DNA of 64,000 bases from the IMG/VR virus record IMGVR_UViG_3300032245_001520, positions 18,345 through 82,344 of that record, one strand, 5' to 3'. How positions within the stretch are numbered: the stretch's first letter is position 1; each line of letters opens with the position of its first letter. Source of the stretch: a virus. Below, in pieces: positions 3,449 through 55,594 of the stretch. Under the pieces are notes generated by a model, which saw only the letters and a list, made by a program, of their open reading frames with translations, was not told the origin of the DNA and made no database searches. The position numbers and the translations under genes are program-made.

Positions 3449-6400
3449 TCAGGGCAGGGTGGCGAAAGCAGTGATGTTTCCACGAACTTGAAGGTCGCCT
3501 GTGTTGGTGAGACGCATCAGAACGGAAGCGTTACCAACGAGTCTGAAGTCGAGGTTTGTACCGTTTTCGCGAATCCACCAGTTGCCGAACACACCGTCAA
3601 GTTTCCAGGCGACACCTGCAGCACCTGCGGACCCGAGAACGTAACCTGCTCCGCCATTGGAGAGGTTGCAGTCAATGATGCCAGCGCCAAACTGGACGGA
3701 CTTGTCTGTGTTACCCCGAATCCAGTAGTTGGTACCGTATCCGATGGCCATCTGACCGCTGGCAGTGGGGGAAGGTGCTTGGACGTTCGGTCCGATGAGA
3801 ACGTTGTTGCTTCCGGTAGTCAGGGTGCTGCCAGCGTTAAGACCGACTGCCACGTTACATCCGCCAGTGGTGGTAGCAAGTGCCGTTGCGCCGATGGCCA
3901 CGTTACCAGCAGCTCCTGTGCTTCCGCCGCACATCGAATTGTAACCCAGGGCAACGTTGAAGTTGCCGGGGGCGCCGACGGAGAGGGCGGCGTTGCCGAT
4001 CGCGACGTTACCGTTGGAGACTCCACCAGACTTCAGAGCCCCGTCCCCCAGTGCGGTGTTGTTGGAACCAGTCGTGACTTGGAATCCTGCACACTGGCCG
4101 ATGAGGGTGTTGAAATTAGCGACGGTAAGGCATTGGCCGGCGAATCCCCCAAGGGCAGTGTTGACTCCATTGATCGCTGAGGCTAGGGCACAGTTGCCAA
4201 CGGCCACGCTGTTGTTGAGACTTCCGCCAAGAACCGTCCCACTGAGGGCGCTGGCTCCGACCGCGACGACCCCGTTGGAAGTGGCAACACATTGCCCGGC
4301 AAGGGCGCCAACGGCGGTGTTTCTCTCTCCGTTGCTGGAGCGAAGAGTGCAGGTGCCGACCGAAGTGTTGTTCGAGACCAGAGCGCCGACGTTCTGAGCG
4401 CAGTAACCTACAGCGGTGTTGTTAAGGGAACCCGAACCACTGGAGAGGTTCTGAAGGGCGGCGAAACCAATACCCGTGTTGGATACTGAAGTAGAGTTGT
4501 TGTTCCCGGCGCACTGGCCGAGATAGGTCGGACCGCCAACGCATGTCTTGGCGAAGACCGTTCCGGCAACGACCGGAGTAGCGGCGGAGGTGGCTACCGA
4601 CCCCCAAGCTGTGCCGGTGCCTGTGCTCGTGAGTGCCTGACCTGATGTGCCGAGGTTACCAGCGGTGTCCCTCAGACCTTTGACGATCTGAACATTGAAA
4701 CCGGAGTCGCCCTTGATCCAGGTGCCAGAGGTGACCCAATCGTTGGACCCGATGACCAGTTGGAGGGATCCAGCAGCATCGTCGACTTGAGTGCAAGCAC
4801 CAATGACAACGTTGCCACAACCGGTCGTGACGTTGCGTCCGGAGGCATGACCTAAGAAGGTGTTATGGCGACCAGTCGTAAGAGTGAGACCAGATTGGCA
4901 ACCGACAGCAACGTTGCGACATGCCTGACCTGCACCGTTCAGAACAGGCAGAGCACAGAAACCAACGGCAACGTTGCCGGGGTCGTTAGCGGTCATGGCA
5001 GACAGTGAGAAACCGCCGATGGCCGTGTTCCCGGAAGAAGATGTGCTAACCTGAAGAGCAGATATTCCGATGGCAACGTTGTCCGACCCCCCGACCAAGA
5101 GGTTGCCGGCACAGTACCCGTTGACAGTGTTTCGCGTGCCGGTCCGCAAGGAACTCAGAGCATTCTGGCCGATAGCCGTGTTGAGGGTGCCGGTCGTTAC
5201 AGAGGCCAGGGCGCAGTTGCCAAACGCGGTGGTGCCGTTTGCCGCGTCACTCGTGCAACCAAAGACGATGCCTGCGACTGTCGGTGTGGCCGATGGGACC
5301 GACTGAGCACCGGCAGAGATGACGCCGGTCGGACTAACTGTGATGGTCGTGCCATCGACGCACACACCACCGAGGACGGTGGTCGTGGCGAAAGGAAGAA
5401 CGTAGGCACCAACCCCGTTGACCCAGGTGAGACCACCCGACCCATTGCGAGAAAGGTACTGGCCAGTCGCACCAGTGTTGCCGCCGGAGTCGAGAATGGT
5501 GTTGGCGAACTGGACCGCGCCAGTCGAGTTTCCACGGATCCAGGTAACGTTGTTGGAACCGATCGCGAGTTGCTGGTTGCCCGCAGGGAGAGTGACGTTT
5601 GTTTGGGGTCCAATGATGACGTTGCACGACCCGGAAGTTAGACCGTATCCGGCACAGAAACCGACGGCGACGTTGGTTGAACCTGTCGCAGACCCCGAAA
5701 CATCGCCAATAGCCAGGTAACCTAGGGTAGTGTTGTTACTTCCAACTCCCAGCCCTAGTCCGGAACAAGAACCCACAGTTGTGTTTCCGGACGAGTTTGA
5801 AGCGATCCCTGACCCGGAAGTGAACCCTAGGAAGGTGTTGTTGCATCCGCCCACGACAGATTCACCTGCGGACTCGCCTAGGGCAGTGTTGGAGGAACCA
5901 GTGGATCTACGCAGGGCGCACATTCCGACTGCGGTGTTGCGGGTTCCTGTCACCACGCTGCAGAGACTGTTGTAACCCACCGCAGTGTTGTTCGCGCCAG
6001 CGGCGAGACTTCCTAAGGCGTTGAATCCGACAGATGTCGCGAAGGAAGGAGCGTTGAGGGAGCACCCGTACACCAAACCGAAGTTGGTCGGAGTGGCAGG
6101 CGTAGCGACGGGAACGCTACCCCAAATGACCCCGTCTCCTGAGGATGCCAGCACTTGACCAGCGGTGCCAATAAGTCCGTTGCAGTCGATCAGACCAGCG
6201 CCGAGGGCCACGTTGCGGTTTTCATCTCCGCGAAGCCAGTAGTTGGGACCGCCTAAATCGCTGTTTCCGATGACCAGTTCGTTGCTAACTGTAGGAGAAC
6301 TGGTCTCCACACCGTATCCGATCAGAACATTACCACATCCGGCAGTGTTGTTCTGCCCTGCGTTTAAACCTAGAAAGATATTTCCGATCCCCTCGGTGAA

Positions 6401-6958
6401 CGAGAGTGCAGCCTCGGAACCAATCGCAATGTTTCCTCCTGAAACGCCTACGTTATTGCCCGACAGAGCATTGTAACCGATAGCGACGGACCGCTGCTCA
6501 TCTGTCTTGCTCCCCATTGCGAGGACGCCAATGGCAACGTTGTGGTCGCCCACCATCGGGGTGGCACCGCCACCTGAGTCAGCCCCCAGGAAGGTGTTCT
6601 CAAAGGGGCTGCCATTAGGGTCTGTATGAGCGAAAACGATGCCAGGCACGACTGTGCTGGCAAAAGGCGCTCCTGCGGGCTGCCAGTTTGCTCCGTCCCA
6701 AATAAGGGTATTTTTGGCATCGGGATTGTACCAAAGCTCGCCCAGTGCGTTGCCCGGTGACCCAGTTCCGGCAGTGTTAGGCGCATTGTCTCCAACGAAA
6801 GCAGCGCCGACTTTCTGCAGTGTGCCCGCAGCGTTCTTGAAGTACACACCGCTGTCGGCAGTGCTGTAGTTCAGTGCGAGTTCGCCGAATGACAAATCGG
6901 TGGAAAAAGGTCGTTTCCCGTTGACGGACGACTTCTTGAGAGTGATTGTGATGGCCAT
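3449..6958 (-). CDS. Long tail fibre with YadA-head-like NxAxGxxAL repeats
   Basis: Shared N-terminal LKKSSV..KRP..GELALN domain; four blocks of NTAVG/NVAIG repeats separated by ATP..AG.VFG linkers. Confidence 0.8.
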   Translation of the reverse strand: MAITITLKKSSVNGKRPFSTDLSFGELALNYSTADSGVYFKNAAGTLQKVGAAFVGDNAPNTAGTGSPGNALGELWYNPDAKNTLIWDGANWQPAGAPFASTVVPGIVFAHTDPNGSPFENTFLGADSGGGATPMVGDHNVAIGVLAMGSKTDEQRSVAIGYNALSGNNVGVSGGNIAIGSEAALSFTEGIGNIFLGLNAGQNNTAGCGNVLIGYGVETSSPTVSNELVIGNSDLGGPNYWLRGDENRNVALGAGLIDCNGLIGTAGQVLASSGDGVIWGSVPVATPATPTNFGLVYGCSLNAPSFATSVGFNALGSLAAGANNTAVGYNSLCSVVTGTRNTAVGMCALRRSTGSSNTALGESAGESVVGGCNNTFLGFTSGSGIASNSSGNTTVGSCSGLGLGVGSNNTTLGYLAIGDVSGSATGSTNVAVGFCAGYGLTSGSCNVIIGPQTNVTLPAGNQQLAIGSNNVTWIRGNSTGAVQFANTILDSGGNTGATGQYLSRNGSGGLTWVNGVGAYVLPFATTTVLGGVCVDGTTITVSPTGVISAGAQSVPSATPTVAGIVFGCTSDAANGTTAFGNCALASVTTGTLNTAIGQNALSSLRTGTRNTVNGYCAGNLLVGGSDNVAIGISALQVSTSSSGNTAIGGFSLSAMTANDPGNVAVGFCALPVLNGAGQACRNVAVGCQSGLTLTTGRHNTFLGHASGRNVTTGCGNVVIGACTQVDDAAGSLQLVIGSNDWVTSGTWIKGDSGFNVQIVKGLRDTAGNLGTSGQALTSTGTGTAWGSVATSAATPVVAGTVFAKTCVGGPTYLGQCAGNNNSTSVSNTGIGFAALQNLSSGSGSLNNTAVGYCAQNVGALVSNNTSVGTCTLRSSNGERNTAVGALAGQCVATSNGVVAVGASALSGTVLGGSLNNSVAVGNCALASAINGVNTALGGFAGQCLTVANFNTLIGQCAGFQVTTGSNNTALGDGALKSGGVSNGNVAIGNAALSVGAPGNFNVALGYNSMCGGSTGAAGNVAIGATALATTTGGCNVAVGLNAGSTLTTGSNNVLIGPNVQAPSPTASGQMAIGYGTNYWIRGNTDKSVQFGAGIIDCNLSNGGAGYVLGSAGAAGVAWKLDGVFGNWWIRENGTNLDFRLVGNASVLMRLTNTGDLQVRGNITAFATLP

Positions 6959-6996
6959 GTTCGCCTATAGAGACAGGAGGGACGTCGGGGGGACCA

Positions 6997-7458
6997 TTAA
7001 GAAATGGTGGCGGAAGAGGTTTGCACCCACTGCGTATTATACAGCACATAGAGCAAACCCGTGGCGGTATTAAACCACATGGTGCCGTTCACATAGTTCG
7101 CAGCATTGGGTGTGGTGTCTTGGGTTAGTGCCTGCGCATACTGGGGCATGGCAAACACGAAATTGCTACCATCAAACACTCGCAGTTTGGGTACAGTTTC
7201 CGAAGTGTCTAACCACAACTCACCCTTGGTGTTTCCAAGGTCTCCAGGAGCACTCGCTCCGGTGTTGGGGGCAGTGGTGCCAACAGAGCACGGTCCCACC
7301 TTGAAAAGTGTCGTACCAGTGTCATCTGCGAAGAATAACCCTGGTTGTCCGGCATTGGTGTTGATCGCTCCTTGACCCGGAAGAAGTAGAGCAGCGATGG
7401 GTCGTTTATTGAGAACGCTGCTCCTTAATAGCTGAACCGGGGTGACTTGTGTTGCCAT
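6997..7458 (-). CDS. Small fibre-associated protein (shared N-terminal domain plus short tail)
   Basis: LLRSSVLNKRP...PGLFF...KVGP...GELWLDT. Confidence 0.7.
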   Translation of the reverse strand: MATQVTPVQLLRSSVLNKRPIAALLLPGQGAINTNAGQPGLFFADDTGTTLFKVGPCSVGTTAPNTGASAPGDLGNTKGELWLDTSETVPKLRVFDGSNFVFAMPQYAQALTQDTTPNAANYVNGTMWFNTATGLLYVLYNTQWVQTSSATIS

Positions 7459-7528
7459 GAGTGACTAGACGTCGGGGGTAGACCCCTGTAGACCAGAGGT
7501 TGTGTAAGTGGTTTTACCCCGACCGTTG

Positions 7529-10500
7529 TCAATCCAGCAACCCTTCATCGATGACGTCGATACTACCGTCGCTTCTCTGCGTCACGCCATCTCCCGCCAG
7601 CAAAACATACTGAGTGACAAGACCTTCAGATTGTGTGGCAGCGCAAGCGATAAACTCGGCAGCAGTGACCACCCGGATGTTGCAAGTCGTCAGTGCCTGC
7701 GGCGGTTCTGAGAACTGAATGCCCAGGGTGCCCGTCGCAAGATTGGGAACGACTCGGTAGGAGATGGAGTTGGGATCCAGAGTGCTCGCCTTGGACGGAG
7801 TTTGCAGGACACCACCCAGGTTGACGAACAGGTTCTCCGCATTGACGATGGTCGCGTCAACTGGTTTGCCACCGATGATCAGATCAAAAGTGACCTTAAC
7901 CCCATTGAACTGCGGGGAGATATCGTCTAGATTCTGCACGTAGACCGAAGTTGCCTCGCGAGACCGGTACCCTGCGCCAGACAAGATGGCGCGATAGTCG
8001 TACGAGGTGCCCAGGGCAGGCGACTCGCCCAGATAGCTGAGTTGGGTGACCTTCGTGGTCGACACGAACACCTGCTGCACCTGGTACGAGGCATCTCCCT
8101 GAAAGTCACCAGTGGGAATCTGCCCGACACCACTGAGGAATGCGAACAGATCCTTGCTCTTGAGAGTGATCTCGGTCGGAGATAATGTGAACAGCGAAGT
8201 TGTGCCATCGATCTCTGGGATAGCGGACAGAGTCACAACCTCGAGTGTCGTCTCGTTGTCCTCCGATGTGACAACACGGATGTCGCAGATGGCGCCGATC
8301 GCAGGTGGCGATGTGAATAGGATCTTCGGTTGGACCACACCGTCTTGAATCACCAGACTGTAGGCAGTGCCAGGTTTCTGTACGACACCACCGAGGTTGA
8401 CGAACAGGTTTGACCCGTTCTCGAGCAACTGGGTGGAGGGCAGGTTGTACCCTTCCCGTTTCAGGTCAAACTCAACTTTCGTCCCATCAAACTCGCTCGA
8501 GATGTTGTCGGTGGAGTACACCAGAATAGGTGCAGGGTACTGAGTCGGTGATGGGGGCAGGTAGACCAGTCGGTTGGCAGGGTTGTTGCTGGGATTCTCG
8601 TTCTGATAGAAGTTGCCAGTGACTGCCTCGCGAACGGGACCGTACAGAACGGTGGATCCGTAGTCGTTGACACCGGCGACGACCAGGCGACCACCCCAGA
8701 CGGAGGTGGCGTAGTAGTCGAACAGCAACTTGCGCGAAATGTCGTTGGTCTGATACTTGAGGAGACCACGCGAGGGATTGTAGTATCCGCAGTACTGCCA
8801 GGTGTGAGTGTTGGACAGAACCTGAGATGGCTGGTTGAACTCAATCGGCCAGGGCGATGTGAAGGCGGCATAGCCATTGATGGGAGACAGTCGGATGCTC
8901 TCGATAGGCAGGACTCGATCGCCCCAGTACTGGGGTTGCAGGTAGGTTTTCATCAGTTCGGCACTGTATCCCATCACCTCGAAAAATCGGTACATCGTCG
9001 ACTTCGTGATGGACCAGAACGGGTCGTACACGGTCGGTTCCGGTGTGTTCGTCTCCTCGCACAGTGTGACAGTCGTGCCCTTTGGCCACTGCTCGGGTGT
9101 GAACGTTCCGTTGTCGGAGTTGAAGACGCCAGGGTTGTACTCGGGATAGTAGTTGCGGATGGCACGCACGTTGCTCGACACAACATTGACGATGCGCACA
9201 TACTCGGTGGTCGCCACATCCGGGTGAGAGAGTTGGGCGACGATCAGACCCTCTTTGGGGTCGCCGATGCCTAGGACGGAGAGGACGTCGAGTTCGATGA
9301 TCGCAGGGCGACCGCGAGTCGCACCGCTATCGCTGGGGAGAGACATCGCCTGATACGTCTGAACCGTGCGCGAGACAGTCAGAGTGGCAGTGGAGACGGG
9401 AGTCAGACGTCGCTTGTAGATGATGCCGAGACCGGATGACCCATCGTCACCGTCGTACACATTCTGAGCACCGAATTGGGTGATCGGAGGTGTGGCACCT
9501 CGCATGAATGTCAGATTCGGTTGCTGGGCGAGGTATCCGGTGTAAGTCGGGTAAAGAGTGGGTTGGACGTATCCGAGGTAGGAGTCGGTAATTGGTTCTT
9601 GTCGCAAGGTGACACTCGTTGTGACAAATGGCGAGTCGACCTTGTTCGGAGAGACCTTGGTGGGTCCGTTGAGAGTAGTGAAGTTGGTTTGGTAGTAGAG
9701 TGTGTTCCAGATGTTGTTCTCTGCCGCGAAGTAGTTGCGATTCTGATAGGTGAAGTACGAACCGGCAGCGGAGTTGAATGCAGTCTGCCCATTGGTGTTG
9801 AACCCCAACTCGGTAAAGTTGGCAGACTGGACCCAGGGGGCACTGCCGTCGACGAGTGTGGCGTAGACGTTGTACGTCGTGCTCTGCGTGGCGTCGGCGA
9901 CCTTGTTGTTGAAGTTGGCTGAGAGACCGGAGACTGTCGGTGAAGACCCGACCACCGAGAAAGTCTGAGAGACGCCACCGTTGATGCCAGGGTCAAACTG
10001 GTACCCTCGCTTGAGGGTGTTTGACAGGTTCTGACCTGTCTGGTTGAGTCGGAGGACGGAACCGTACTGGGGTGCGAGCGATGTCGGGTTGGTCGAGGAC
10101 ACGAAGAACCCGTAGGACCGTTGCTCCTGCGACCGAGGGTCGATAAACCGACGAATGTACGGAGTGTCAAAACCGGAGGTGTCGTTGGAGTACTGGTCGC
10201 CCATCGGAATGCGCGAGTCAGACAGTCGCAGACGGAGAACACCACCACCGTTGTAGGTCGGGTCGGAGAGGATGGCTGTGGGAGAACCGTCGGTGACGAA
10301 GAATCCCTGGTACGAGCAGTCAGGGTCGGCGATGTACAGAGCGCTGCCAGGGGCGAGAGAGAAGGGCAGGATGCTCTCGGGATTGAAGGGGTGGCTGAGC
10401 ACCACGAGTTGAACCGAGGAGTCGGTAGGGTCTTGAACCACCCGGACCACCTTGCTTCCCAAGTTGAGGATGCGTTTCTGCTCGTTCGACTTGACCTCTT

Positions 10501-12481
10501 CTTCGAGGAGGACAAGAGGGCGAGAGATGCCTGAGAGGAGGAACCCTCGGTCGTTAGCATTGGCGCCACCCAGTGTGCCGATGCCCGCGAAACCCTCGGA
10601 CTGAATAGCGACAGACCCGAAGTCGGTCTTGCTATTGGTGAGCGACAGAATGGCACCGTTCATAGCCCAGGCACCGACAGCAGCGCCGATGGTGTAACAT
10701 TCGCCTGCCTCGGTGAATGCGTTGGCACCACGCACTCGGAACCCGAAGTGGCGGAAGTCGTTGTCCAGATCGGTGATGCCAGTGCTCAGTCGCCCGTCGC
10801 CGACTCGCAGAGTCTCGTAGTAGTACCGGATGTTCGAGATGGAAGCACGGTTGAGTGTCTCGAGTTGGTACTCAGTCGGAACCTCGTACGGATAGGCATA
10901 CTCGGTGACCAAGGACTGACCCAGTGTTGAGAGAGACACCCAGTCTTGATCGGAGGTGGCGTACACCTCGTAGGCAGCAGGGTCGAGTTGTAGGGAGAAG
11001 GCAGTGCAGGTCTCGGTGATGGCGGATTTGAATCCGGAGACCAGATCGCCGTCGTTGTCTTCGAGGCACATGCCATAGCTCGATCGAAGACTCAGACGTG
11101 TCGCACGAGGCGAGGCGAATGCTGTCGAGTTGCTGCTGATGTTGTCAGGGAAAACACCGGTGGTCGGCGCCACGATCGTGGTCTCGCCAGGGAAGGACAC
11201 TCGGGTGTCGACGCGACCCGCAAACTCGGGGAATGCTTTCTGCACTTTGGTGTAGAAGTCGCGCAGTTCCTGCAGAGTGGCACTGGTGTGACCACGCAGT
11301 CGATGGTGAGAGTAGTTGTGCAGTTCGTACGATGTGCCGTCTGCCGGTTTGAAATACGGAAAAATGTTGCTAACTGCCAGTTTGGTGCCACTCAGATCGT
11401 TGATGCCGGGGGGCAACTGACTGAAGAGCACGTAGGTGGCTCCGGTGCTGTACGCAGACGAGGTGGGCGACAGACGGAAGGTGAACGAGTCGACGGGACT
11501 GGCGTAGTATGCGCCAGGGGGGAATGCGTCGGACCGAATGGTCGTGCTAGGGTACGACACCGATGTGAAGTCGTCCTCGCTCAAACCGTGGGGGCGACGA
11601 GACCGGAAGACTGCCTCGCCGTTGGCGTTTGCTGTGATGGAGACAACGTCGCGGGTCTCGACTTTGTCACAGTAGACGAAGTTGTCGAAGAAGCACCCGC
11701 CCGACCGTTTGAAGATCGATGTGATGGGTTGATTGCTGATCGCGGTGCTAGTGGTGGTCAGTGCGTAGGGGACCGGGTACGCAGGGTGGGTGTATTTCGG
11801 AACGTACGTCGGATGAATCGAACACTCTCTGGGATTGTCGCTGATGATCGAGATGCCAGCAGGGATAACGAGAGCACCGTCTGGAGTGTTGAACTCTTGC
11901 AACTGGTACTGTTGGACGTTTCCGTCTACCGATTGAGAAAAATCAACTGAGAAATCTTGGACGGTGTTACCGGGACCATTGACCACACAATTGCGGCCAC
12001 CAAGGAGAACAACCTGATAGGTGGCGTCAAACCATCCCTTCAGGAAGTTCTCAATGTATAATTTCGTGAGTTGGATGACAGCGCGATTGACTGTGACAAA
12101 CGGGATAGACTGTCCATCATTCTGAAGCGAGTCGGTAGCGTTTGGGTACTCAGGTCCGACGAAGACGGTGTATCCGCCGCTACCACCAAAGAAGGGCGAC
12201 GAGACTGCCTCCCACGTGTTCCTATCAGATCCAATACTAAGCGACTTGGTGTTGACGTCGTACCAGAGTTCGCCTTTTGCAGGGAGGGAGGTTGGTTCCG
12301 AAGGCGAATACGCAGTCGGGCCAATCTTGACGATGCTGCTGTCAGAGACTTGGAAAAATGCTCCAGGATCGACGCTATTTGTATTTAGCCCCAACTCTCC
12401 TGGCACCAAATTGGCCGGGGTGGGGCGTTTTCCGAGGATCGAGGATCGCTTGAAGACGATTTTTACAGCGTTGCTGGACAT
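7529..12481 (-). CDS. Large virion structural/tail appendage protein (1650 aa)
   Basis: Shared N-terminal domain, NDGQSIPFVTVNRA motif, C-terminal DxISxxFxG...LFVNLGGVxQxP repeats, terminal IDEG. Confidence 0.7.
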   Translation of the reverse strand: MSSNAVKIVFKRSSILGKRPTPANLVPGELGLNTNSVDPGAFFQVSDSSIVKIGPTAYSPSEPTSLPAKGELWYDVNTKSLSIGSDRNTWEAVSSPFFGGSGGYTVFVGPEYPNATDSLQNDGQSIPFVTVNRAVIQLTKLYIENFLKGWFDATYQVVLLGGRNCVVNGPGNTVQDFSVDFSQSVDGNVQQYQLQEFNTPDGALVIPAGISIISDNPRECSIHPTYVPKYTHPAYPVPYALTTTSTAISNQPITSIFKRSGGCFFDNFVYCDKVETRDVVSITANANGEAVFRSRRPHGLSEDDFTSVSYPSTTIRSDAFPPGAYYASPVDSFTFRLSPTSSAYSTGATYVLFSQLPPGINDLSGTKLAVSNIFPYFKPADGTSYELHNYSHHRLRGHTSATLQELRDFYTKVQKAFPEFAGRVDTRVSFPGETTIVAPTTGVFPDNISSNSTAFASPRATRLSLRSSYGMCLEDNDGDLVSGFKSAITETCTAFSLQLDPAAYEVYATSDQDWVSLSTLGQSLVTEYAYPYEVPTEYQLETLNRASISNIRYYYETLRVGDGRLSTGITDLDNDFRHFGFRVRGANAFTEAGECYTIGAAVGAWAMNGAILSLTNSKTDFGSVAIQSEGFAGIGTLGGANANDRGFLLSGISRPLVLLEEEVKSNEQKRILNLGSKVVRVVQDPTDSSVQLVVLSHPFNPESILPFSLAPGSALYIADPDCSYQGFFVTDGSPTAILSDPTYNGGGVLRLRLSDSRIPMGDQYSNDTSGFDTPYIRRFIDPRSQEQRSYGFFVSSTNPTSLAPQYGSVLRLNQTGQNLSNTLKRGYQFDPGINGGVSQTFSVVGSSPTVSGLSANFNNKVADATQSTTYNVYATLVDGSAPWVQSANFTELGFNTNGQTAFNSAAGSYFTYQNRNYFAAENNIWNTLYYQTNFTTLNGPTKVSPNKVDSPFVTTSVTLRQEPITDSYLGYVQPTLYPTYTGYLAQQPNLTFMRGATPPITQFGAQNVYDGDDGSSGLGIIYKRRLTPVSTATLTVSRTVQTYQAMSLPSDSGATRGRPAIIELDVLSVLGIGDPKEGLIVAQLSHPDVATTEYVRIVNVVSSNVRAIRNYYPEYNPGVFNSDNGTFTPEQWPKGTTVTLCEETNTPEPTVYDPFWSITKSTMYRFFEVMGYSAELMKTYLQPQYWGDRVLPIESIRLSPINGYAAFTSPWPIEFNQPSQVLSNTHTWQYCGYYNPSRGLLKYQTNDISRKLLFDYYATSVWGGRLVVAGVNDYGSTVLYGPVREAVTGNFYQNENPSNNPANRLVYLPPSPTQYPAPILVYSTDNISSEFDGTKVEFDLKREGYNLPSTQLLENGSNLFVNLGGVVQKPGTAYSLVIQDGVVQPKILFTSPPAIGAICDIRVVTSEDNETTLEVVTLSAIPEIDGTTSLFTLSPTEITLKSKDLFAFLSGVGQIPTGDFQGDASYQVQQVFVSTTKVTQLSYLGESPALGTSYDYRAILSGAGYRSREATSVYVQNLDDISPQFNGVKVTFDLIIGGKPVDATIVNAENLFVNLGGVLQTPSKASTLDPNSISYRVVPNLATGTLGIQFSEPPQALTTCNIRVVTAAEFIACAATQSEGLVTQYVLLAGDGVTQRSDGSIDVIDEGLLD

Positions 12482-12705: not shown

Positions 12706-12706
12706 G

Positions 12707-14320: not shown

Positions 14321-14327
14321 GGGTGTC

Positions 14328-26409: not shown

Positions 26410-26643
26410 TCAGAAAACACCGTAGTCCAAGTTACCATCAAGACCGTCCCCTGCGATCACAAGTTCGCCATCTCGCACAAAAATGTTCGCACCTGAGTTG
26501 AGCATACCCGCACTGGTCTGTATACCAAACTGCTCTGCCTCCAGGATGTCGGGAGTGCGAAAAGGATCGTTGGGGATCTCTTCCGTCGGGTCGAACGGTT
26601 CCGCAGCGTTTATGTTCTTGCGTTGCCTCGGAATCATGCCCAT
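26410..26643 (-). CDS. Small fibre adaptor
   Basis: FDPTEEIPNDPF motif; ends LDYGVF; has its own late motif. Confidence 0.55.
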   Translation of the reverse strand: MGMIPRQRKNINAAEPFDPTEEIPNDPFRTPDILEAEQFGIQTSAGMLNSGANIFVRDGELVIAGDGLDGNLDYGVF

Positions 26644-37915: not shown

Positions 37916-40900
37916 CTAAAATCCACCGGCGTCGAAGCTGACAACCGTTTTTAGCTGACCCGTGCTCAGGTCAACCACAACTCCCAACTGATTCGCAGCA
38001 GTCACAGTCGAGGTTGTCTGCAGCGGAGTGGAGAACAGGTTTCCTGTCAGAGTTCCACCAGACTTGGGCAGCGCCGCAGCAGCCAGATCGTAAGCAACCT
38101 TGACCGAGTTGGGTGTCGCAGCCGTTGTGGCAGAGGTTGAGGCAACGGAGTTGGTGAGTTGCAGCACACCGACTTCGGAGGTTGATCCCGTCGAGACACT
38201 GACGATAACGTTCGCCGGGTCTGTGGAGTTCACAGTGACAGGAGCGACGCCAGCCACTGTGTCAACGGTTCCCCCACCGCCACCGCCACCTGCGGTCCAA
38301 GTGAGCGGTGAGCCAGGACCGTTGGAGGTTAGGACCTGACCGGCAGCACCGACGCCTGAGGGCAGAGTGATCGGACCGGCAAGAGACAGTGAGCTGACTG
38401 TGCTCAGCAGGTCGATAGAACCGAAGCGAGCCGGTGTATCAATCAGAGCGCCTTCCAGCAGCGAGTTAGCCTTGTCGAACGTGGAGTCGTCAAGAATGAA
38501 ACTACCATTGAGGTTGAGGCGAGCAGCAGCGCCGGAGGGAGTGTAGAACTGGCTATTGCGCAGGAACGCAGTGGTTCCGAGAGCACTCGTAACGGCAGCG
38601 TTAGTCTCGCCAGTGGCAAACACGTTGCTCGTGTCGATAACAGTTGTCCCCAGGGTGAGAGTGACAGCACCGACGACAGGGCAACCGCTGGCAGAGAAGA
38701 CACCAGCAGCGTTGTTGATAGTAACAGGACCGATGCGACTATCGTCAACGTTGAAATAACCTGCACCCGTGATGTTCAGGGAGGACAGATTGGCCTCGAC
38801 ATCGAAGAACTGAGAGTAGCCATTGCCTGACTTGGTAAAGACGACGCCAGTATTGAGTGTGCACTCGTCAAGGTAAACTCCGCCAGCACCGCTGTGAGTG
38901 ATGTTGCCAAAGAACAGAACACCCGAGACGCGAACGCTGGAGGAGGCACCCGTGAAGGCGACTGTGCCGTTGATGGTGGCACCGGAGCGGTTGGCACCCA
39001 CGATGTCCAGGTTGAGGTCCGTAGCACCGATGGTCAGGTTCTCGGTGTAGGTGCCCTGGTGAAGCACAATGCGCTCGCCAGTGTTGCCAGCGGCGGTGAG
39101 AGCACGACCGATGGTCAGGAACGGTTGCTCTTCCGAACCAGTGCCGTTGGTGTCGTCACCGCCCACCGGGTCAACGTTCCACTCTTTGCTGTACTTGTGG
39201 AAGTTGGCACCGGAAGTGCGAGTGTAGCTAATGGGGTCGGTGCCGATAGTGTTGACGGTGGTGTACTGGGCGTAGGAAGTGCCACCATTGGTCGTTCCGT
39301 TGGAGACGAAGTACAGTGCGCCGTTGGGCAACTCGGCCGTAGAGTCAGCGTTGCTCGCACGGGTCAGCAGGGTTGTAGTCGTCCAGACGTAGACGCCGTT
39401 CTGGAAAGCGGAGGCCTGGTTCTTAACTAGAACTCGGTCGGTAGCACCAGTGCGAGCAACACCGTCGATGGTTGCCAGAGCAGTCCCAAGTGTCAGTGTG
39501 GCGCCGACGCCAGCAGTGCCGTTGTTGTAAGTGACGACCCCTGGAATGGCGACTGTGGTGGCGACTCGGACAGCGTCCTGAGGGCGAAGACCGCCAGAGA
39601 TCTGGTCGACGTAGAACTTCGAGGTCGGCGACTCGGGGGACGAGGGGATAGGGTTGCTGCCGTTGAGGAAGATCTCGCCGGAGAAGGTGCCACCCGAGAT
39701 GGGCATCGCAGCAGCAGCCAGGTCGTAGGCAGCCTTGACAGCGGTGTCGGTGGCGGCGACTGTGGAAGTCGCAGTGTTGGTGGCGTCGGAGAGTTGAACC
39801 GACCCTTTGACCAGCAGGGTACCGTCCTTGGTGTTGACGACGTTGTATCCACTAGGTTCACCTTCCAGCCAGTAGTAGGAGATGCCAGTGTCGAGAGCGA
39901 CGTAAAGCGTCTCAGGAACACCTAGCGCAGGGAAGGAACCGAAGTTGGCAAACTGGGCCACCCCACCAGCGGGGGCGTCACCCGGAGTGATCCACTCGAG
40001 AGCGGAACCAGTGGAACTGAGGACTTGACCCGCAGCACCGACGGTGCCCAGTCCGTCCAGAATGCCCGCACCCGGTTTGATATTCATCGCGCTGTCGCCC
40101 GTCAGCCAGGAAGCTGTGGAGTTAGGGGCGATGACGAGTTGACAGTTGGCAGTGGCGTCTGTAACAGCAGCACCGAAACCTACGGCCACGTTGTAGTTGC
40201 CGCTGGTGGCGTTGCCAGAGCAGGCACCCAGAGCGACGTTGCCGATGCCAGTGGTCAGAGCGTTGTTGGCGCTGAAACCGACGCCGGTATTAGGGTTCTC
40301 GCCATCCTCTGTGCTAGCGAAGACGACCCCCAGAGCAGTCGGAGTGGCAGTGTTGACGCCAACAATAGGATCAGCGGGGTTCTCGTTGTCAATCGTGATG
40401 GGCAGAGTGCCGGAAACGGACTGAACTCCGTCAGCAGCGTTCGTGATCCACTCAATGGCAGTGCCAGTGGAACTCAGGACTTGACCCGCAGTACCGAGGT
40501 TGCCGGCTGTGTCGCGAAGACCAGCACCGGGTTGGATGTGCTTGCTAGAGTCGCCCGTCAACCAGTTCTGACCGACGGCAAACGACAGTGCCATTTGGCA
40601 GTCGCCGTCTCCGACAGTGGCCTCGTATCCGAGCAGCAAGTTGCGGGAGCCGGTCTGGAGATCTTCACCAGCGTGAGCGCCAATAGCTGTGTTTCCACTG
40701 CCATTCACATCAAGAAGAGCATTGCCACCGATGGCAACGTTATCGCTTGACGCACCCGCCGCGAAAGCCATGGCGAAACTGCCGATGGCCAGGTTAGAGT
40801 TGCCAGTGGTGAGGGAGCAAGCAGTGCCATCACCGATGGCGACGTTCCTGCACCCCGTCGTGATAGCAGCGAGAGGAGCACAACCGATGGCAACGTTGTC

Positions 40901-43756
40901 TGCGCCGGTCAGTGTCGCAAACATCCCTGTTCCCAGGGCGACGTTGTTCTTGACTGTCTCTGTGCAACCTAGGACGAGACCGGCGACAGAGGGGGTAGCA
41001 TTGGGGGCACTGTAAGGTGTGACCCATTGAAGACCAGTAGCACAAGCACTGTTGGCACTGAGCACTTGGTTGTTGGTGCCGATCGAAAGAGCAGAGTAGG
41101 CAGAGGCACCCGTGGCAGCGAGGAGATCACCTTTGGTTGCGTAGGCACTCTTGGGGACCGCATCGCCAGCGAGAGTGTTTGCGTCATCTGCCAGGTCGTA
41201 GGCACTCTTAACGGCGGTGGAACTGGCTGCAGTGACCGAGGAAGTTGTGGAAACGCTGTCGCTGATGCCCTCAATCGTGCCACCCTCACCATTGTTGAAT
41301 GTGACCGACTCGCCTGTTGCGATGTTGACAGTCAGTGCATTTAGCTGCCCTGCCATCGTTCCACCGGCAAGTGCCAGGTAGGCAGCGGAAAGGGTGGCGG
41401 GAGTGACTGCCTTGGTGGCGTCGGTGCCAGCATCCACTTCGCCTTGAGTAGCGAGTTGAATGACACCGGGGAAGGTTGTGGAGGCGTAGCCTGGCTGATA
41501 ACCAACGTCCAGGAATTGCCAAACAGCACCATCGGAGAGGAACCAGTCACCGACGTGGGTCAGCGTAGGTGTGCCACCCGTGGGGGTCATGGTGCCGTTG
41601 ACAGTCACGATGACGAAGAACTCGGCGTTGCCAGCGGCAGCGGCAGGGAGGGCAGCGCCAGGGACGAACGGGGGGACGAGCGCGGCACCGGCACCGGTGA
41701 CCGTGACCAGCAACCCTGTGGAACCATCAATGGTGCCTGCCAGGGTCAGGTTGCTGGTAATGACCAGGTTGTCGATCTGATCCTGCAGCGCTTTACCTTG
41801 AGCAGCGGTCAGTGCCTCAGTCGTCGAGGTCGAAGTTACGGTGTTGACGAGTTGAACGACACCCGATTGCGAGGTCGAGGACGATTTGACACTGATGGTG
41901 CCAGAGGACACATCGATGTTGGTGCCCACTTGCACAACACCTTTGGCAGATGTGGTGGCATCTTGAATACCTGCGACGGGGAAGGTCTGACTCGCGTTGA
42001 AAGCGATATCGCCAGACATCGTACCACCTGCCTTGGGCAGGGCAGCATTTGCCAGGTCGTAGGCAGTCTTGACTGCGTTGGCAGTCGCTGCTTGAGCAGT
42101 GCTCGTGGAGTTGGTCGTGTCGTTGAGTTGAACAACACCCTTAGCGCCAGTCGTGGCGTCGGCGACGCTGATGACACCGTTCTCGACGTCGATGTTCGTT
42201 CCAACCTGAACGACACCTTTCTGAGCATCTGTCGCGTCCTGAATGCCAGCGACGGGGAATGTCTGACCGGAGTTGAATACGATGTCGCCGGTCATCGTGC
42301 CGCCTGCTTTCGGCAGAGCGTTATCAGCGGTGGTCTGAGCAGCACCAGCAGCGTCGTATGCCGACTTGACTGCACTCGGAGTGGCGGCGAGCGCGTCGGA
42401 GGTAGAGTCAGTGGCGTTGCTCAGACGGACCACGCCTTTCTGCAACAGGGTGCCGTCCTGAATATCGCCAACGGGAAGCGTCTGGTCTTCCGCGAAGGTG
42501 ATGACCCCAGTCATCGTACCACCAGAGAGGGGCAGAGCGGCGTTGGCCAGGTCGTAAGCAGTCTTGACGGAACTGGGAGTCGCTGCTTTGGTTGTGTCCG
42601 TACTGGTGACGGACGTCTCAAGGACGACGATGCCAGCAGTGGTGGTAGTCGCAGTGGGTTGCGTGCCGGCGAAGACGATGTCGCCGGTCATCGTGCCACC
42701 TGCCTTGGGTAGAGCAGCGTCGGCGGTTGCCTGGGCAGCGGCAGCGTCAGCCAGCGCCTGGGTGGCGTCGCCCTGGGCAGCGGCAGCGTCAGCCAGCGCC
42801 TGGGTGGCATCGCCCTGAGCAGTGTTGGCAGTTTCTTGTGCCTGAGTGGCGTCGAGAGCGGCAGAGTTGGCAGTGTTCTGAGCGGCCAATGCGTCGGCGA
42901 GTGCCTGAGTGGCATCGGTGCCAGCGGTGACTGCAACGTCGTAGGCAGACTTAACTGCGCTTGCTGTGGCAGCGAGAGTCGTGCTGGTGGAGTTGGTCGC
43001 GGCGCTCAGTTGGACAGCGCCCGCGACTGAGGTGGAAGCAGCGTTGATTCCGACGACCGGGTTAACAGGGTCGGTGTTGTTGACAGTGATGGGCGAGGTG
43101 CCAGACACGCTGTCTACGGAACCACCCCCGCCACCACCACCTGTGACCCAGGCAGTCGCGCCAGTGCCAGGGTCGGTCAGTGCCAGGACCTGGTTGATGG
43201 TGCCAGCGACGAGCGGAGAGGAGACTTTGGTGCCTGCAAACTGGTAAGTAATCTTGACTGCGTTGGCTGTGGCAGCGACGAGAGCAGAGTTGTCGGTGGT
43301 TGAGTCGCTGAGGCGCAAAACACCAGACTGAGTGGTGCTGCCAGTGCGGACAGAGACAACAGGATTGGCAGGATCGGTGTTGTTGACAGTGATGGCATTG
43401 CCAACGGGGGCAGTGACGCTGTCTACGGACCCACCGCCACCGCCACCGCCGCTACCCCACACGAGGCGATTTTGAGCGGCATTCCAGGTCGGGACCTGAC
43501 CGTTAGTCGGGGATCCGCCGTAGTAATTGGGTGAGATGAGGAAGGGGTTGTTGCTGGCAGCGGTGAGGGGGAACGAGAACCACCCTTGACCAGCGACGCC
43601 GGGGTTGGAGGTGCCGGTGAAGTCTGTCTTGAAGTTGCTGCCGTTGCCGATGTAAATGATCTTGTCTGCCATGTTATAGCAGACTTGCCCCGGTTGGAGA
43701 GCGAGAGGTTGCTCACCGGGGGTGAAAGAGCGTAGATTTAGGACTTGTACGGACAT
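37916..43756 (-). CDS. Giant tail fibre protein (1946 aa)
   Basis: Many KGVVQLxxxTxSTSxxxAATxxAVKxAYDLAxAALPKAGGTMTG fibre repeats, NxAxG repeats, a DRVLVKNQ..NGVY module and a beta-helix-like region; ends FDAGGF. Confidence 0.85.
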   Translation of the reverse strand: MSVQVLNLRSFTPGEQPLALQPGQVCYNMADKIIYIGNGSNFKTDFTGTSNPGVAGQGWFSFPLTAASNNPFLISPNYYGGSPTNGQVPTWNAAQNRLVWGSGGGGGGGSVDSVTAPVGNAITVNNTDPANPVVSVRTGSTTQSGVLRLSDSTTDNSALVAATANAVKITYQFAGTKVSSPLVAGTINQVLALTDPGTGATAWVTGGGGGGGSVDSVSGTSPITVNNTDPVNPVVGINAASTSVAGAVQLSAATNSTSTTLAATASAVKSAYDVAVTAGTDATQALADALAAQNTANSAALDATQAQETANTAQGDATQALADAAAAQGDATQALADAAAAQATADAALPKAGGTMTGDIVFAGTQPTATTTTAGIVVLETSVTSTDTTKAATPSSVKTAYDLANAALPLSGGTMTGVITFAEDQTLPVGDIQDGTLLQKGVVRLSNATDSTSDALAATPSAVKSAYDAAGAAQTTADNALPKAGGTMTGDIVFNSGQTFPVAGIQDATDAQKGVVQVGTNIDVENGVISVADATTGAKGVVQLNDTTNSTSTAQAATANAVKTAYDLANAALPKAGGTMSGDIAFNASQTFPVAGIQDATTSAKGVVQVGTNIDVSSGTISVKSSSTSQSGVVQLVNTVTSTSTTEALTAAQGKALQDQIDNLVITSNLTLAGTIDGSTGLLVTVTGAGAALVPPFVPGAALPAAAAGNAEFFVIVTVNGTMTPTGGTPTLTHVGDWFLSDGAVWQFLDVGYQPGYASTTFPGVIQLATQGEVDAGTDATKAVTPATLSAAYLALAGGTMAGQLNALTVNIATGESVTFNNGEGGTIEGISDSVSTTSSVTAASSTAVKSAYDLADDANTLAGDAVPKSAYATKGDLLAATGASAYSALSIGTNNQVLSANSACATGLQWVTPYSAPNATPSVAGLVLGCTETVKNNVALGTGMFATLTGADNVAIGCAPLAAITTGCRNVAIGDGTACSLTTGNSNLAIGSFAMAFAAGASSDNVAIGGNALLDVNGSGNTAIGAHAGEDLQTGSRNLLLGYEATVGDGDCQMALSFAVGQNWLTGDSSKHIQPGAGLRDTAGNLGTAGQVLSSTGTAIEWITNAADGVQSVSGTLPITIDNENPADPIVGVNTATPTALGVVFASTEDGENPNTGVGFSANNALTTGIGNVALGACSGNATSGNYNVAVGFGAAVTDATANCQLVIAPNSTASWLTGDSAMNIKPGAGILDGLGTVGAAGQVLSSTGSALEWITPGDAPAGGVAQFANFGSFPALGVPETLYVALDTGISYYWLEGEPSGYNVVNTKDGTLLVKGSVQLSDATNTATSTVAATDTAVKAAYDLAAAAMPISGGTFSGEIFLNGSNPIPSSPESPTSKFYVDQISGGLRPQDAVRVATTVAIPGVVTYNNGTAGVGATLTLGTALATIDGVARTGATDRVLVKNQASAFQNGVYVWTTTTLLTRASNADSTAELPNGALYFVSNGTTNGGTSYAQYTTVNTIGTDPISYTRTSGANFHKYSKEWNVDPVGGDDTNGTGSEEQPFLTIGRALTAAGNTGERIVLHQGTYTENLTIGATDLNLDIVGANRSGATINGTVAFTGASSSVRVSGVLFFGNITHSGAGGVYLDECTLNTGVVFTKSGNGYSQFFDVEANLSSLNITGAGYFNVDDSRIGPVTINNAAGVFSASGCPVVGAVTLTLGTTVIDTSNVFATGETNAAVTSALGTTAFLRNSQFYTPSGAAARLNLNGSFILDDSTFDKANSLLEGALIDTPARFGSIDLLSTVSSLSLAGPITLPSGVGAAGQVLTSNGPGSPLTWTAGGGGGGGTVDTVAGVAPVTVNSTDPANVIVSVSTGSTSEVGVLQLTNSVASTSATTAATPNSVKVAYDLAAAALPKSGGTLTGNLFSTPLQTTSTVTAANQLGVVVDLSTGQLKTVVSFDAGGF
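42730..42813. repeat. 42-nt tandem duplication within the fibre gene
   Basis: Two units with one mismatch, encoding DATQALADAAAAQG. Confidence 0.85.
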
Positions 43757-43766: not shown

Positions 43767-44240
43767 TCAGGAAAGGGTACCGCAATCGATGAGAGAGATT
43801 TCAGAAGCGTCGTTTATTGTTACTCCTGCGCCGGAGCGGACGTAACCGTTGTCTTTCAGGTACGCCGTAACGGTACCGTTTACCCACCCGACAGTGACGA
43901 ACGCTGCCGGATTGTTCGGAACTTCTGCTTGAAGGTAAATCGGTCCTTCAAACACCCCGCCATTTTGGTCGATGCTGTCGGTGGGATAGGGGACAACTGC
44001 CACCCACTGTGAACTGTTTAAGTCTTTGTAGTAGATGTTTAGGTTACTCGTGACTGTAGAGTACCACAGAGAACCATTGATCGGGTTTGCCGGAGGGGAC
44101 GCCGACACGAACACAGGTGCGGAAGTGGGGGTCGTAACCTGGGTAGCAACCCATGATGTTCCATTCCACTTGAAAGTTCTGCCTGTGTTAGAATATACCT
44201 GCCCTAGAGCAGGATTTGGAGGAAACGTCAGTGCTGCCAT
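43767..44240 (-). CDS. Small fibre-associated protein
   Basis: FPPNPALGQVY...WNGTSW and PINGSLWY motifs; ends IDCGTLS. Confidence 0.65.
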   Translation of the reverse strand: MAALTFPPNPALGQVYSNTGRTFKWNGTSWVATQVTTPTSAPVFVSASPPANPINGSLWYSTVTSNLNIYYKDLNSSQWVAVVPYPTDSIDQNGGVFEGPIYLQAEVPNNPAAFVTVGWVNGTVTAYLKDNGYVRSGAGVTINDASEISLIDCGTLS

Positions 44241-55022: not shown

Positions 55023-55030
55023 TTTCTACC

Positions 55031-55594
55031 TCAGTTTGGGCAGATGATCGTGTTACCGCCAGTACCTACAGAATAGTTATTGCACGCAGGATTGGTTGCA
55101 GAGTAGTAGACTCCGTTGTCAACCTCCAGACCCTCAGCGATTGCTGTCACCTGGTCTGCGAGGATTGCTTTCGTGATGATATCTGAGTTGCTCAGCGAGG
55201 CGAACTTCTGCGCAGTTGAGGGTGCAGGTGTCCCACCTGCGTAGAGATACTTGGCGTTGGTTGTGTAGTTCTGAGGGGCATTCGCACCGTTGCTGTTGCT
55301 GGGGTTACCCAGCACGTTAGGGTCGTACCCGAAGTTGAATACCCCCGTGACAACCTTAGTGCCAGTGATCGGGGTGCCACTGATATACAGACCACTGATG
55401 GCCAGCGAAGGTTGGTCCGTTCCCAGGGTGATGTACCGAGAGTCAAGACCGTTGGATCCCCCTGTGACCAGGGAGTTGAGACCCAGAGGGTCATAGTGAT
55501 GGTCTAAATCCTGCCCATCGAAGTAGATCTGTTGAAAACCGTTAAGGAACTGGGAAGTGACTATCACTCCACTAGAGAAAGTTGTCTTTGTCAT
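55031..55594 (-). CDS. Tail/baseplate-associated protein
   Basis: TTFSSGVIVTSQFLN N-terminus typical of fibre-attachment proteins; VDNGVY near the C-terminus. Confidence 0.55.
   Translation of the reverse strand: MTKTTFSSGVIVTSQFLNGFQQIYFDGQDLDHHYDPLGLNSLVTGGSNGLDSRYITLGTDQPSLAISGLYISGTPITGTKVVTGVFNFGYDPNVLGNPSNSNGANAPQNYTTNAKYLYAGGTPAPSTAQKFASLSNSDIITKAILADQVTAIAEGLEVDNGVYYSATNPACNNYSVGTGGNTIICPN

Follow-up and report, generated by a model that had tools for sequence, protein, structure and literature searches.

How the many fibre proteins of a cyanophage-like phage are joined to one another is the question raised by its tail-fibre genes. The genes lie in a window of 64,000 nt, which covers positions 18,345-82,344 of an 82,344-bp contig (record IMGVR_UViG_3300032245_001520). 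The original prediction held that 13 of the proteins begin with a related domain, that eight carry a D-x-G peptide at or near the C-terminus, and that the peptide docks into the domain to give branched, combinatorial fibres. The present analysis indicated that the fibre proteins are likely to be joined head to tail by a joint of the T4 gp36-gp37 type, which is multiplied here. The genes, named by their first coordinate, are listed in Table 1.

Table 1. Fibre genes of the window and their end modules (positions in the window).
Positions	Strand	Length (aa)	Type	N-domain	Peptide	Remarks
43767..44240	-	157	plug protein, peptide-only		IDCGTLS (class-Q type)	directly upstream of 37916
37916..43756	-	1946	extender fibre	divergent class Q (P-G-Q)	FDAGGF (class-E type)	9 Phage_fiber_2 stretches (Pfam, E 1.8e-72); N-domain profile 34.0 bits
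35326..37056	-	about 576	peptide-only fibre		VDGGSF	probable start 37056 (M28)
34142..35317	-	391	tip paralogue 1, domain-only	class E		putative C-terminal lectin-like jelly roll (modelled)
32836..34077	-	413	tip paralogue 2, domain-only	class E
31645..32832	-	395	tip paralogue 3, domain-only	class E
30461..31639	-	392 from ATG	tip paralogue 4, domain-only	class E		probable start 31639
29199..30458	-	419	tip paralogue 5, domain-only	class E
28033..29199	-	388 from ATG	tip paralogue 6, domain-only	class E		probable start 29199
26871..28031	-	386	tip paralogue 7, domain-only	class E		N-terminus matches phrog_356
26671..26868	-	65	adaptor, peptide-only		IDCGVLGE (class-Q type)	N-terminal anchor module before the plug
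26410..26643	-	77	adaptor, peptide-only		LDYGVF (class-E type)	N-terminal anchor module before the plug; directly upstream of 25301
25301..26347	-	348	extender	divergent	ADFGTF	profile 44.9 bits; sub-threshold Mtd_N match
24843..25205	-	120	cap, domain-only	class E		directly downstream of 25301
7529..12481	-	1650	extender	class E	IDEGLLD (class-Q type)
6997..7458	-	153	domain-only protein	class Q (P-G-Q)		directly downstream of 7529
3449..6958	-	1169	domain-only fibre or spike	class E
55031..55603	-	190	not counted as a plug		VDNGVY (internal)	adjoins baseplate genes

Start Domain of the Fibre Proteins

The predicted start domain was borne out in 13 proteins by alignment (about 95 residues, mean column identity 38%) and by a contig-wide profile search. 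The residues M1, S10, P17, G25, N30, and W76 were invariant across the 13 genes. The profile was searched against 676 ORFs (at least 40 aa, six frames) of the whole contig and returned exactly the same 13 proteins, always at the N-terminus, a count that is partly circular because all 13 had been built into the profile. The search shows that further copies are absent from the contig. The domain consists of two modules. The first, of about 55 residues, is specific, and the second is a generic fibre hairpin (P-N...G-E-x-W-x-D...L..Y.G..W), which also matches within other fibre proteins and has a second copy in gene 6997 (residues 112-146).

Five domain proteins were tested in a PHROG search, and three of them matched phrog_356 (minor tail protein) over profile positions of about 3-98, namely 6997 (E 2.7e-16), 26871 (E 5e-11), and 24843 (E 1.9e-5). 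In the same search, 34142 had no match, and 25301 matched families annotated 'long tail fiber distal subunit', at their N-termini, and not phrog_356. The domain family amounted to 7,527 representative clusters.

T4 gp37 (residues 5-60) matched the domain profile with 39.0 bits (E 4.3e-9 at Z=100,000), and hhalign gave a probability of 97.9% and an E of 6.3e-13 over 53 columns. The likeness to the attachment domain of Bordetella phage Mtd-type proteins, which had been predicted, proved weak. The best window score against Pfam Mtd_N (PF18454) was 21.5 bits (25301), below the cut-off of 26.3 bits; BPP-1 Mtd, run as the positive control, reached 61.4 bits. Gene 7529 reached 15.2 bits on a different stretch from that of 25301, and Mtd_N found nothing in the other 6 of the 8 window N-termini tested or in the N-terminus of T4 gp37. 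Moreover, the domain profile missed BPP-1 Mtd in hmmsearch at E up to 1000, and hhalign gave 0.1% with a single-sequence, hence weak, template. By sequence comparison, T4 gp37 is the closer known relative of the domain.

C-Terminal Peptides and Sorting of the Genes

Seven proteins of the contig ended in hydrophobic-D-x-G-x-[F/L], with 0-2 residues beyond the motif. The pattern D-x-G-x-[FLYIVMW] was present in the last 9 residues of 7/520 ORFs (at least 50 aa, six frames, whole contig). All seven were long minus-strand fibre genes, and the plus-strand ORFs gave 0/277. Seven of the eight predicted peptides were thus terminal, whereas the eighth is doubtful: the VDNGVY of 55031 sits 27 residues before the C-terminus, and for that reason this gene was left out of the plug count.

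Motif and profile searches of the contig gave the same sorting as the prediction, with four peptide-only genes, three genes with both modules, and ten domain-only genes. The bodies preceding the peptide were mutually unrelated (mean column identity of the alignment 18%, with the motif Gly alone invariant), which fits a portable docking tag. Of the seven proteins with a peptide, four had no Pfam match, and in none did Pfam match the C-terminal part. In addition, the N-terminus of 43767 was of an F-P-x-x-P...G-Q-x-Y type common to fibre genes upstream of the window.

Five of the seven peptide genes in the window were directly followed by a domain gene (43767 by 37916, 35326 by 34142, 26410 by 25301, 25301 by 24843, and 7529 by 6997), and 8 of the 13 domain genes had no peptide gene directly upstream. 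With 13 domains against seven peptides, at least six domains are without a dedicated partner.

Adjacency in Other Viral Loci

The comparison set consisted of 80 metagenomic IMG/VR loci, retrieved by their likeness to the window phage's own domain. A pair was defined as a gene with the N-terminal domain and the gene at most 200 nt upstream, which gave 46 non-redundant pairs. The co-occurrence expected in related viruses was found, with peptide genes directly upstream of domain genes. The upstream gene ended in [D/N]-x-G-x-hydrophobic in 30/46 pairs, compared with 44/779 other non-redundant genes (Fisher p 3e-23), and in the strict D-x-G-x-hydrophobic in 21/46 compared with 30/779 (Fisher p 1e-15), values that overstate independence since the loci were found by likeness to the window phage's domain and are mutually related. 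Six scrambled motifs each occurred in 0/46 upstream genes. The motif ended exactly at the C-terminus in 20 of the 30 motif-bearing upstream genes, and even the loose motif was absent from 16/46. Furthermore, 17 of the 46 domain proteins also ended in a peptide, and collinear chains (peptide-only, both, both, domain-only) were present in loci L020, L032, L022, L011, and L013. The sorting into anchor, extender, and tip recurs in this form in other viral contigs.

Among cultured phages, gp047 of the siphovirus S-CBS4 ends in IDCGTY, and the next gene, gp048, begins with the domain. Two cultured relatives, S-CBWM1 and S-TIM5, have the domain and no peptide upstream of it. In S-TIM5, gp133, which precedes the domain protein gp132, ends in VDALEY without the motif, indicating that the domain can attach by other means.

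These exceptions would be expected if the motif were a structural end-cap or a folding or assembly signal of trimeric beta-rich fibres (a truncated last repeat unit or a chaperone handle), with the adjacency arising from the clustering of fibre genes and the N-domain attaching independently to the baseplate or to shafts. This explanation is improbable. The strict motif at the end of 30 of the other genes agrees with it, as do the 510-513-aa proteins ending in INGGTY in one group of loci, which carry D-G-G-x-Y twice inside their last 60 residues, so that the motif can belong to a repeat. However, the background genes came from the same fibre-rich loci, and the excess upstream of the domain was still about 12-fold.

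Two Pairing Classes

The co-variation of peptide and domain was followed in 34 adjacent pairs, which were split by the residue after the conserved domain Gly. When this residue was E (19 pairs), an acidic x in the peptide and residues past the motif were each found in 0/19. Without E (15 pairs, mostly Q), the counts were 11/15 and 12/15, respectively. The Fisher values were 5e-6 for the acidic x and 8e-7 for the trailing residues, each class resting on perhaps 4-5 independent lineages by our estimate. That the motif co-varies with a residue in the domain of the next gene counts against an end-cap. There seem to be two classes of joint, which probably do not mix. From the pairs we infer a specificity rule, by which G-E domains would accept peptides whose last residue is the aromatic one and whose x is not acidic, and G-Q domains would accept peptides mostly with an acidic x or Cys, and/or with 1-2 extra residues.

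Complex Model of the Joint

Three copies of the N-terminal 95 aa of 34142 were folded with three copies of the C-terminal 60 aa of 35326. The score of this 3+3 fold was 0.91, and that of the best of three controls was 0.00. The score mark was reached by 58/80 solved complexes and 2/110 mismatched pairs, a calibration on single-chain pairs that is only rough for the 3+3 fold, with its own alignments and six chains, and the score is the model's own confidence. At least 93% of contacts were common to the runs, and the partner pLDDT was at least 88. The modelled interface contained residues 1-10, 15, 17-18, 21, 23, 28, and 69 of the domain and residues 53-60, 36-39, and 44 of the peptide segment, with the last 8 peptide residues on the first 10 domain residues. 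That exactly the last 8 residues were placed on the domain, with the controls at 0.00, also speaks against an end-cap. The class-defining residue (domain position 26) was not among the residues named at the interface. In the PDB set searched, no chain matched T4 gp36, the N-terminus of gp37, or the domain profile, so the model is unlikely to have passed by reproducing a solved joint. The fold supports binding of peptide to domain, short of demonstrating it.

The C-terminal domain of the seven tandem tips may be a lectin-like jelly roll of the concanavalin-A-like or CBM40 type, as modelled. In the model of 34142, the mean pLDDT was 60.7, with values of 70-87 only over about residues 230-390. 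The best Foldseek matches were CBM40, pentraxin, and LG domains (E 7e-6, TM by target 0.5-0.58, identity 14-17%).

Proposed Joint and Its Meaning

The docking of the C-terminal peptide on the N-domain, as first proposed, is supported by the gp36/gp37 homology, the adjacency, the co-variation, and the 3+3 fold; physical binding, strand geometry, and the plug-domain partners in the virion are what we infer from them. The resident trimer would end in hydrophobic-[D/N]-x-G-x-[F/Y/L], and the incoming trimer would begin with the gp37-N-like domain of about 55 residues. The last 8 residues of each resident chain would form a strand alongside the L-K-R-S strand, which is made up of the first 10 or so residues of the incoming chains. 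Because each peptide touches two chains in the model, three plus three strands would close a coaxial joint. The four peptide-only proteins may serve as anchors or adaptors, three of which (35326, 26671, and 26410) have another N-terminal module in common. The three proteins with both modules would be extenders, and the ten domain-only proteins would be ends, seven of them being tandem paralogues. Branched fibres are not favoured, since the model stacks three chains on three along one axis, with no branch point seen, and such a joint would give linear chains.

A pairing fixed one-to-one by gene order is likewise improbable. In that view the motif pairs would be old fission sites, at which a long fibre gene was split and the two ends still match, and the surplus domains, including the seven paralogues, would be placed on the virion through other contacts and not as alternative tips. 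Gene order does mirror chain order in several contigs and in the five window pairs, and the modelled coaxial joint resembles a continuous fibre. Against this view, the profile hits in the 80 loci included no protein with peptide and domain fused (internal hits were of the generic second half only), and the peptide-carrying bodies are unrelated. In the best 150 of the 7,527 clusters, moreover, the proteins that begin with the domain range from 120 to 1510 aa, which favours a mobile module over local fission. Fission would still imply docking and differs on interchangeability alone.

Under the docking joint, tips may compete for stalks, as there are more domains than peptides, and the kit of 13 domains and seven peptides probably lets the phage mount many different host-binding tips. 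It is possible, though rather doubtful, that the joint amounts to an assembly code readable from sequence, with two or more orthogonal classes and combinatorial use, in which four class-E peptides serve eleven class-E domains and the same stalks are contested by all seven lectin-like tips. If so, different receptor-binding tips would be mixed on a single virion or within a burst. Moreover, fibre architecture, and tips gained by duplication or transfer, would be predictable from the termini across thousands of phages.

Comparison with Known Systems

The closest cultured relative was Synechococcus phage S-CBWM1 (large terminase 55.1% identical), which shares the gene order of terminase, PhoH, kinase, giant fibre protein, small domain protein, and a fibre protein of about 1200 aa. 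Its 1573-aa protein is syntenic and homologous with 7529 but has no plug. In the 100,000 of its 139,069 bases examined, there were two domain proteins, neither of which followed a peptide-ending gene, and no seven-gene tip array.

The anchor-branch systems of Klebsiella KP32-type phages and CBA120 combine a T4 gp10-like branching domain with a conserved N-terminal peptide on a second protein. As in the window, several receptor-binding proteins are joined to one another by a short conserved peptide paired with a small domain. However, those systems have the peptide at the N-terminal end of the incoming protein, whereas in the window the peptide is the resident C-terminus and the domain is on the incoming protein. 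Those systems branch, whereas the window joint was modelled as coaxial, and the Pfam search of the window fibre proteins gave no gp10-like domain. BPP-1 is like the window in that the fibre protein bbp9, encoded directly upstream of mtd, ends in A-D-L-G-G-I-A. The N-terminal beta-prism of BPP-1 Mtd has been described as a trimeric module presumed to attach the receptor-binding protein to the tail fibre (PMC10743442).

The T4 long tail fibre is like the window in both partners: the gp37 N-terminus is homologous to the window domain, and gp36 has the same kind of terminal peptide (...QDFGYY), with gene 36 directly upstream of gene 37. According to reviews, both joint partners are trimers; trimeric gp36 binds gp37 in its N-terminal region (PMC3004832), through contact of the gp36 C-terminal end with the N-terminal end of gp37 (PMC9603124). 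This precedent is a real junction, which again counts against an end-cap. The joint was not described as a sequence motif in the literature searched. The bodies of the window proteins were not homologous to gp36 or gp37, for Pfam and PHROG gave other fibre families or nothing, and the end modules alone were shared. Neither the 65- and 77-aa adaptors nor the seven tandem, putatively lectin-like tips have a counterpart in T4. A single joint of this type is present in T4, whereas the window phage has 13 domains and seven peptides in two apparent classes.

Inventory of the Domain and the Peptide

The 13 fibre proteins named in the original prediction were aligned (A1), and the domain profile was searched against the 676 ORFs of the whole contig. 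Exactly these 13 proteins were recovered, each with its match at the N-terminus, confirming that they have a common domain. The first part of the domain is specific (the first ~55 residues, L-K-R-S…K-R-P…L…G-E-L-A-x-N…G-x-F-F-K). The second part (G-E-x-W-x-D…L…Y-x-G…W) is a fibre hairpin of generic type; it was also matched within C-terminal stretches of unrelated fibre proteins across many loci and was repeated in the window protein 6997 (genes are named by their window start coordinates).

The peptide hydrophobic-D-x-G-x-[F/L], followed by 0-2 residues, ended seven of 520 contig ORFs; on the other strand, a terminal D-x-G peptide was found in none of 277 ORFs. Eight such peptides had been proposed. 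Seven of them held, and the eighth, in gene 55031, was ruled out as a plug, with its motif 27 residues from the end of the protein. The sorting of the genes into peptide-only, peptide-plus-domain and domain-only proteins was borne out by the profile and end-motif searches of the contig ORFs. The search found no fused peptide-plus-domain "Rosetta stone" protein, the internal profile matches covering only the generic second half. The N-terminal domain and the C-terminal peptide are a real observation. Its striking aspect is the scale: 13 domains, seven peptides, seven tips and mini-adaptors, together with a hint of two orthogonal classes.

Relation to the T4 Gp36–Gp37 Junction

In PHROG, gene 25301, which has both domain and peptide, matched the N-terminal parts of families annotated "long tail fiber distal subunit", and the T4 fibre genes were therefore compared. 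The N-terminus of T4 gp37 corresponded to the window domain in the profile search (39.0 bits, E 4.3e-9 at Z = 100,000) and in hhalign (97.9%). The gene directly before gp37 encodes gp36, which ends in …Q-D-F-G-Y-Y. According to one review, trimeric gp36 is bound to the N-terminal region of gp37 (PMC3004832); another has the gp36 C-terminus binding to the gp37 N-terminus (PMC9603124). Furthermore, a section of a 2026 preprint (10.64898/2026.03.06.709160) gives the distal rod as (gp36)3-(gp37)3, with predicted models fitted at low resolution. Because of the gp37 homology, the gp36 end and the review statements on binding, plug and socket are the two sides of the known T4 junction. The PDB copy searched by sequence contained no chain for gp36, the gp37 N-terminus or the domain profile, and no atomic structure of the junction. 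The literature searched, openly accessible main texts, covered the T4 junction and a presumed role for the prism of Mtd, the receptor-binding protein of Bordetella phage BPP-1; it gave no account of a terminal peptide motif or of the sequence logic of the joint.

The domain had originally been likened to the N-terminal attachment domain of Mtd. Against the Pfam profile Mtd_N, the BPP-1 Mtd reference scored 61.4, whereas 25301 reached 21.5 bits, below the cut-off of 26.3. Gene 7529 scored 15.2 bits on a different stretch, and the other six window N-termini tested had no match. In addition, the family profile did not match BPP-1 Mtd in the profile search or in hhalign. Apart from the one sub-threshold match of 25301, a link of the domain to Mtd was not supported. 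A distant relationship is possible, because bbp9, the fibre gene directly upstream of mtd, ends in A-D-L-G-G-I-A, and the Mtd prism is presumed, in a passage of PMC10743442, to be attached to the fibre.

Co-occurrence in Other Phages

A five-sequence domain alignment recovered 80 IMG/VR loci, in which a simple greedy ORF caller gave 1,571 genes, the calls being crude. The profile found 99 genes with the N-terminal domain, 93 of which had an upstream gene within 200 nt; merging near-identical pairs left 46. In these loci, which were picked by likeness to the window phage and are mutually related, peptide genes co-occurred with domain genes. The D-x-G-x-hydrophobic end was present in 21/46 upstream genes versus 30/779 of the remaining non-redundant genes in these loci (Fisher p 1e-15), and the [D/N]-x-G-x-hydrophobic end in 30/46 versus 44/779 (Fisher p 3e-23). 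Six scrambled motif patterns occurred in 0/46 upstream genes. The motif was the exact C-terminal end in 20 of the 30 motif-bearing upstream genes and was absent upstream in 16 of the 46 pairs. The peptide-bearing bodies were unrelated to one another (A4).

The peptide end was also present on 17/46 domain proteins. Gene-order chains running from peptide-only through two proteins with both elements to domain-only were found in L020, L032, L022, L011 and L013, and 57-aa peptide-only genes, similar to the 65- and 77-aa proteins of the window, preceded domain genes in L012, L013, L021, L027 and L029. In seven loci (L061, L066, L070, L074, L079, L043 and L046), proteins of 510-513 aa upstream of domain genes ended in I-N-G-G-T-Y and had two extra D-G-G-x-Y units in the last 60 residues. 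Because of these further units, the terminal peptide may be a truncated repeat unit, completed by the first strand of the next protein.

The domain profile matched 7,527 representative clusters of a 1.84-billion-protein library at E 1e-3, 1,700 at 1e-10 and 88 at 1e-30. Among the best 150 of the 7,527, the domain started within the first seven residues in all, the proteins were 120-1510 aa long, and the loose motif ended 10.

Modelled Joint and Possible Pairing Classes

The modelled joint combined residues 1-95 of 34142, the first of the seven tandem tips (A3, 58 rows), with the C-terminal 60 residues of 35326, the peptide-only fibre directly upstream (A4, 37 rows), each in three copies. The complex scored 0.91 (runs 0.91, 0.92 and 0.90), compared with 0.00 for the best of three controls. 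The calibration mark was reached by 58/80 solved complexes and 2/110 mismatched pairs and is only rough here, since the input was six chains with custom alignments. At least 93% of contacts were common to the runs, with a partner pLDDT of at least 88. At the predicted interface, the eight C-terminal residues of the peptide, together with its residues 36-39 and 44, faced domain residues 1-10, 15, 17-18, 21, 23, 28 and 69. In the listed contacts, the residue numbers of domain (3-9) and peptide (53-59) ascended jointly. With each peptide also meeting two domain chains, the model can be read as interleaved parallel strands, three plus three. This prediction favours, but does not prove, binding between 34142 and 35326. 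Taken with the known-joint homology, synteny and co-variation, docking of the peptide into the domain, as first proposed, is well supported, partly on modelling. Branched fibres were rejected as an outcome of this joint, which would yield linear chains instead.

Co-variation was examined in 34 adjacent pairs, of which the loci supplied 29 and the window five. In the 19 pairs with E after the conserved Gly (domain position 26), neither an acidic x nor residues after the motif occurred. In the 15 pairs without E (mostly Q), x was acidic in 11 and residues followed the motif in 12. Fisher's test gave 5e-6 for acidic x and 8e-7 for residues after the motif, although the true support is weaker because only ~4-5 independent lineages per class were judged to be present. 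Position 26 was absent from the residues listed for the modelled interface. In the window, class Q comprised two domains (6997, 37916) and three peptides (7529, 26671, 43767), and class E eleven domains and four peptides (25301, 26410, 35326, 37916). These results are a hint of two orthogonal joint classes.

Putative Adaptors and Tips, and Gene Setting

The peptide-only proteins 35326, 26671 and 26410 had in common an N-terminal module of ~50 residues with 14 invariant columns (A6; M..N.PSF.P..PIPN.PF...E.FGIQT..GML.SGA), which may be a second docking element fixing the anchors to the baseplate or another fibre. The 65- and 77-aa proteins (26671 and 26410) contained little besides this module and the peptide, and look like adaptors that make another site into a plug. 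The seven tandem paralogues were domain-only, with 28-35% identity to 34142 (A5). The tip model of 34142 was weak (mean pLDDT 60.7; 70-87 over approximately residues 230-390; low confidence in the first 220), its usable part being the C-terminal jelly roll. Foldseek matched this predicted domain to jelly rolls of the CBM40, pentraxin and LG types (E 7e-6, TM by target 0.5-0.58), which would fit sugar binding by the tips, as a lead only.

All long genes of the window, which spans bases 18,345-82,344 of one 82,344-bp contig, were on the minus strand. They encode a large terminase, a head maturation protease, a major head protein, a tail-tube-like protein, a baseplate wedge protein and a very large fibre gene set. 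The terminase had 55.1% identity to that of Synechococcus phage S-CBWM1, the nearest cultured phage in the collection searched, and near the giant fibre gene 7529 the two phages have matching gene orders. When 20 kb were compared with cultured phages by megablast, the matches were of 50 nt only and did not identify the phage. Further features are listed in the table. The adjoining GP38-matching gene suggests that a gp38-type adhesin caps fibre 3449, and the two recurrent N-termini upstream of the window may be additional joint types.

Further features of the window and the contig
Feature	Coordinates	Observation
GP38-like gene	window 2322-3440	372 aa; Pfam GP38 (phage tail fibre adhesin), 33 bits, cut-off 25; directly downstream of domain-only fibre 3449
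Second hairpin of 6997	window 7016-7123	residues 112-146 of 153
Homing-endonuclease-like ORFs	window 17023-17673, 37156-37869, 50237-50935	amid structural genes; labels from sequence reading only; 37156 lies between anchor 35326 and extender 37916
Anchor module	window 26413-26868, 36877-37056	common to 35326 (from M28), 26671, 26410
HNH-like ORFs	window 56585-57235, 58390-59058	on either side of major head gene
Major head gene	window 57392-58324	
50-nt stretch	window 59117-59167 (in region 56366-59218)	94-96% identity to sequences of Bacillus and Staphylococcus phages; an annotated group I intron overlies one of the matches
Fibre-like genes	contig 4446-17527	upstream of window; ~9 more, with neither domain nor peptide
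N-terminus type 1	contig 4446-17527	M-x-L-x-R-A-Q-L..G-d-s-T; three genes, two ending A-L-P-A-L-P
N-terminus type 2	contig 4446-17527	F-P-x-x-P-x-x-G-Q-x-Y...W-x-W; three genes, also window gene 43767

Significance and Comparison with Known Systems

The assembly of multi-protein tail fibres is understood in very few phages. If a C-terminal [D/N]-x-G-x-aromatic peptide and the gp37-N-like domain form a general joint, the order of fibre parts could be deduced from the genome, uncultured many-fibre phages such as the window phage with its 13 domains could be interpreted, and rules for gaining new receptor-binding tips would become testable. Moreover, two classes would explain how several chains are assembled per cell without cross-wiring.

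Among cultured phages, tblastn with the domain found only eight records, from S-CBS4, S-CBWM1 and the S-TIM5 group, a number too small to serve as a survey. Gp133 of S-TIM5, upstream of the domain gene, ends in VDALEY, unlike the peptide, and S-CBWM1 had two domains and no upstream peptide in the 100,000 of 139,069 bases covered. In BPP-1, the end of the upstream gene matched the peptide only loosely. In contrast, gp047 of S-CBS4 ends in IDCGTY and is followed by the domain protein gp048, and in T4 the upstream gene carries the peptide.
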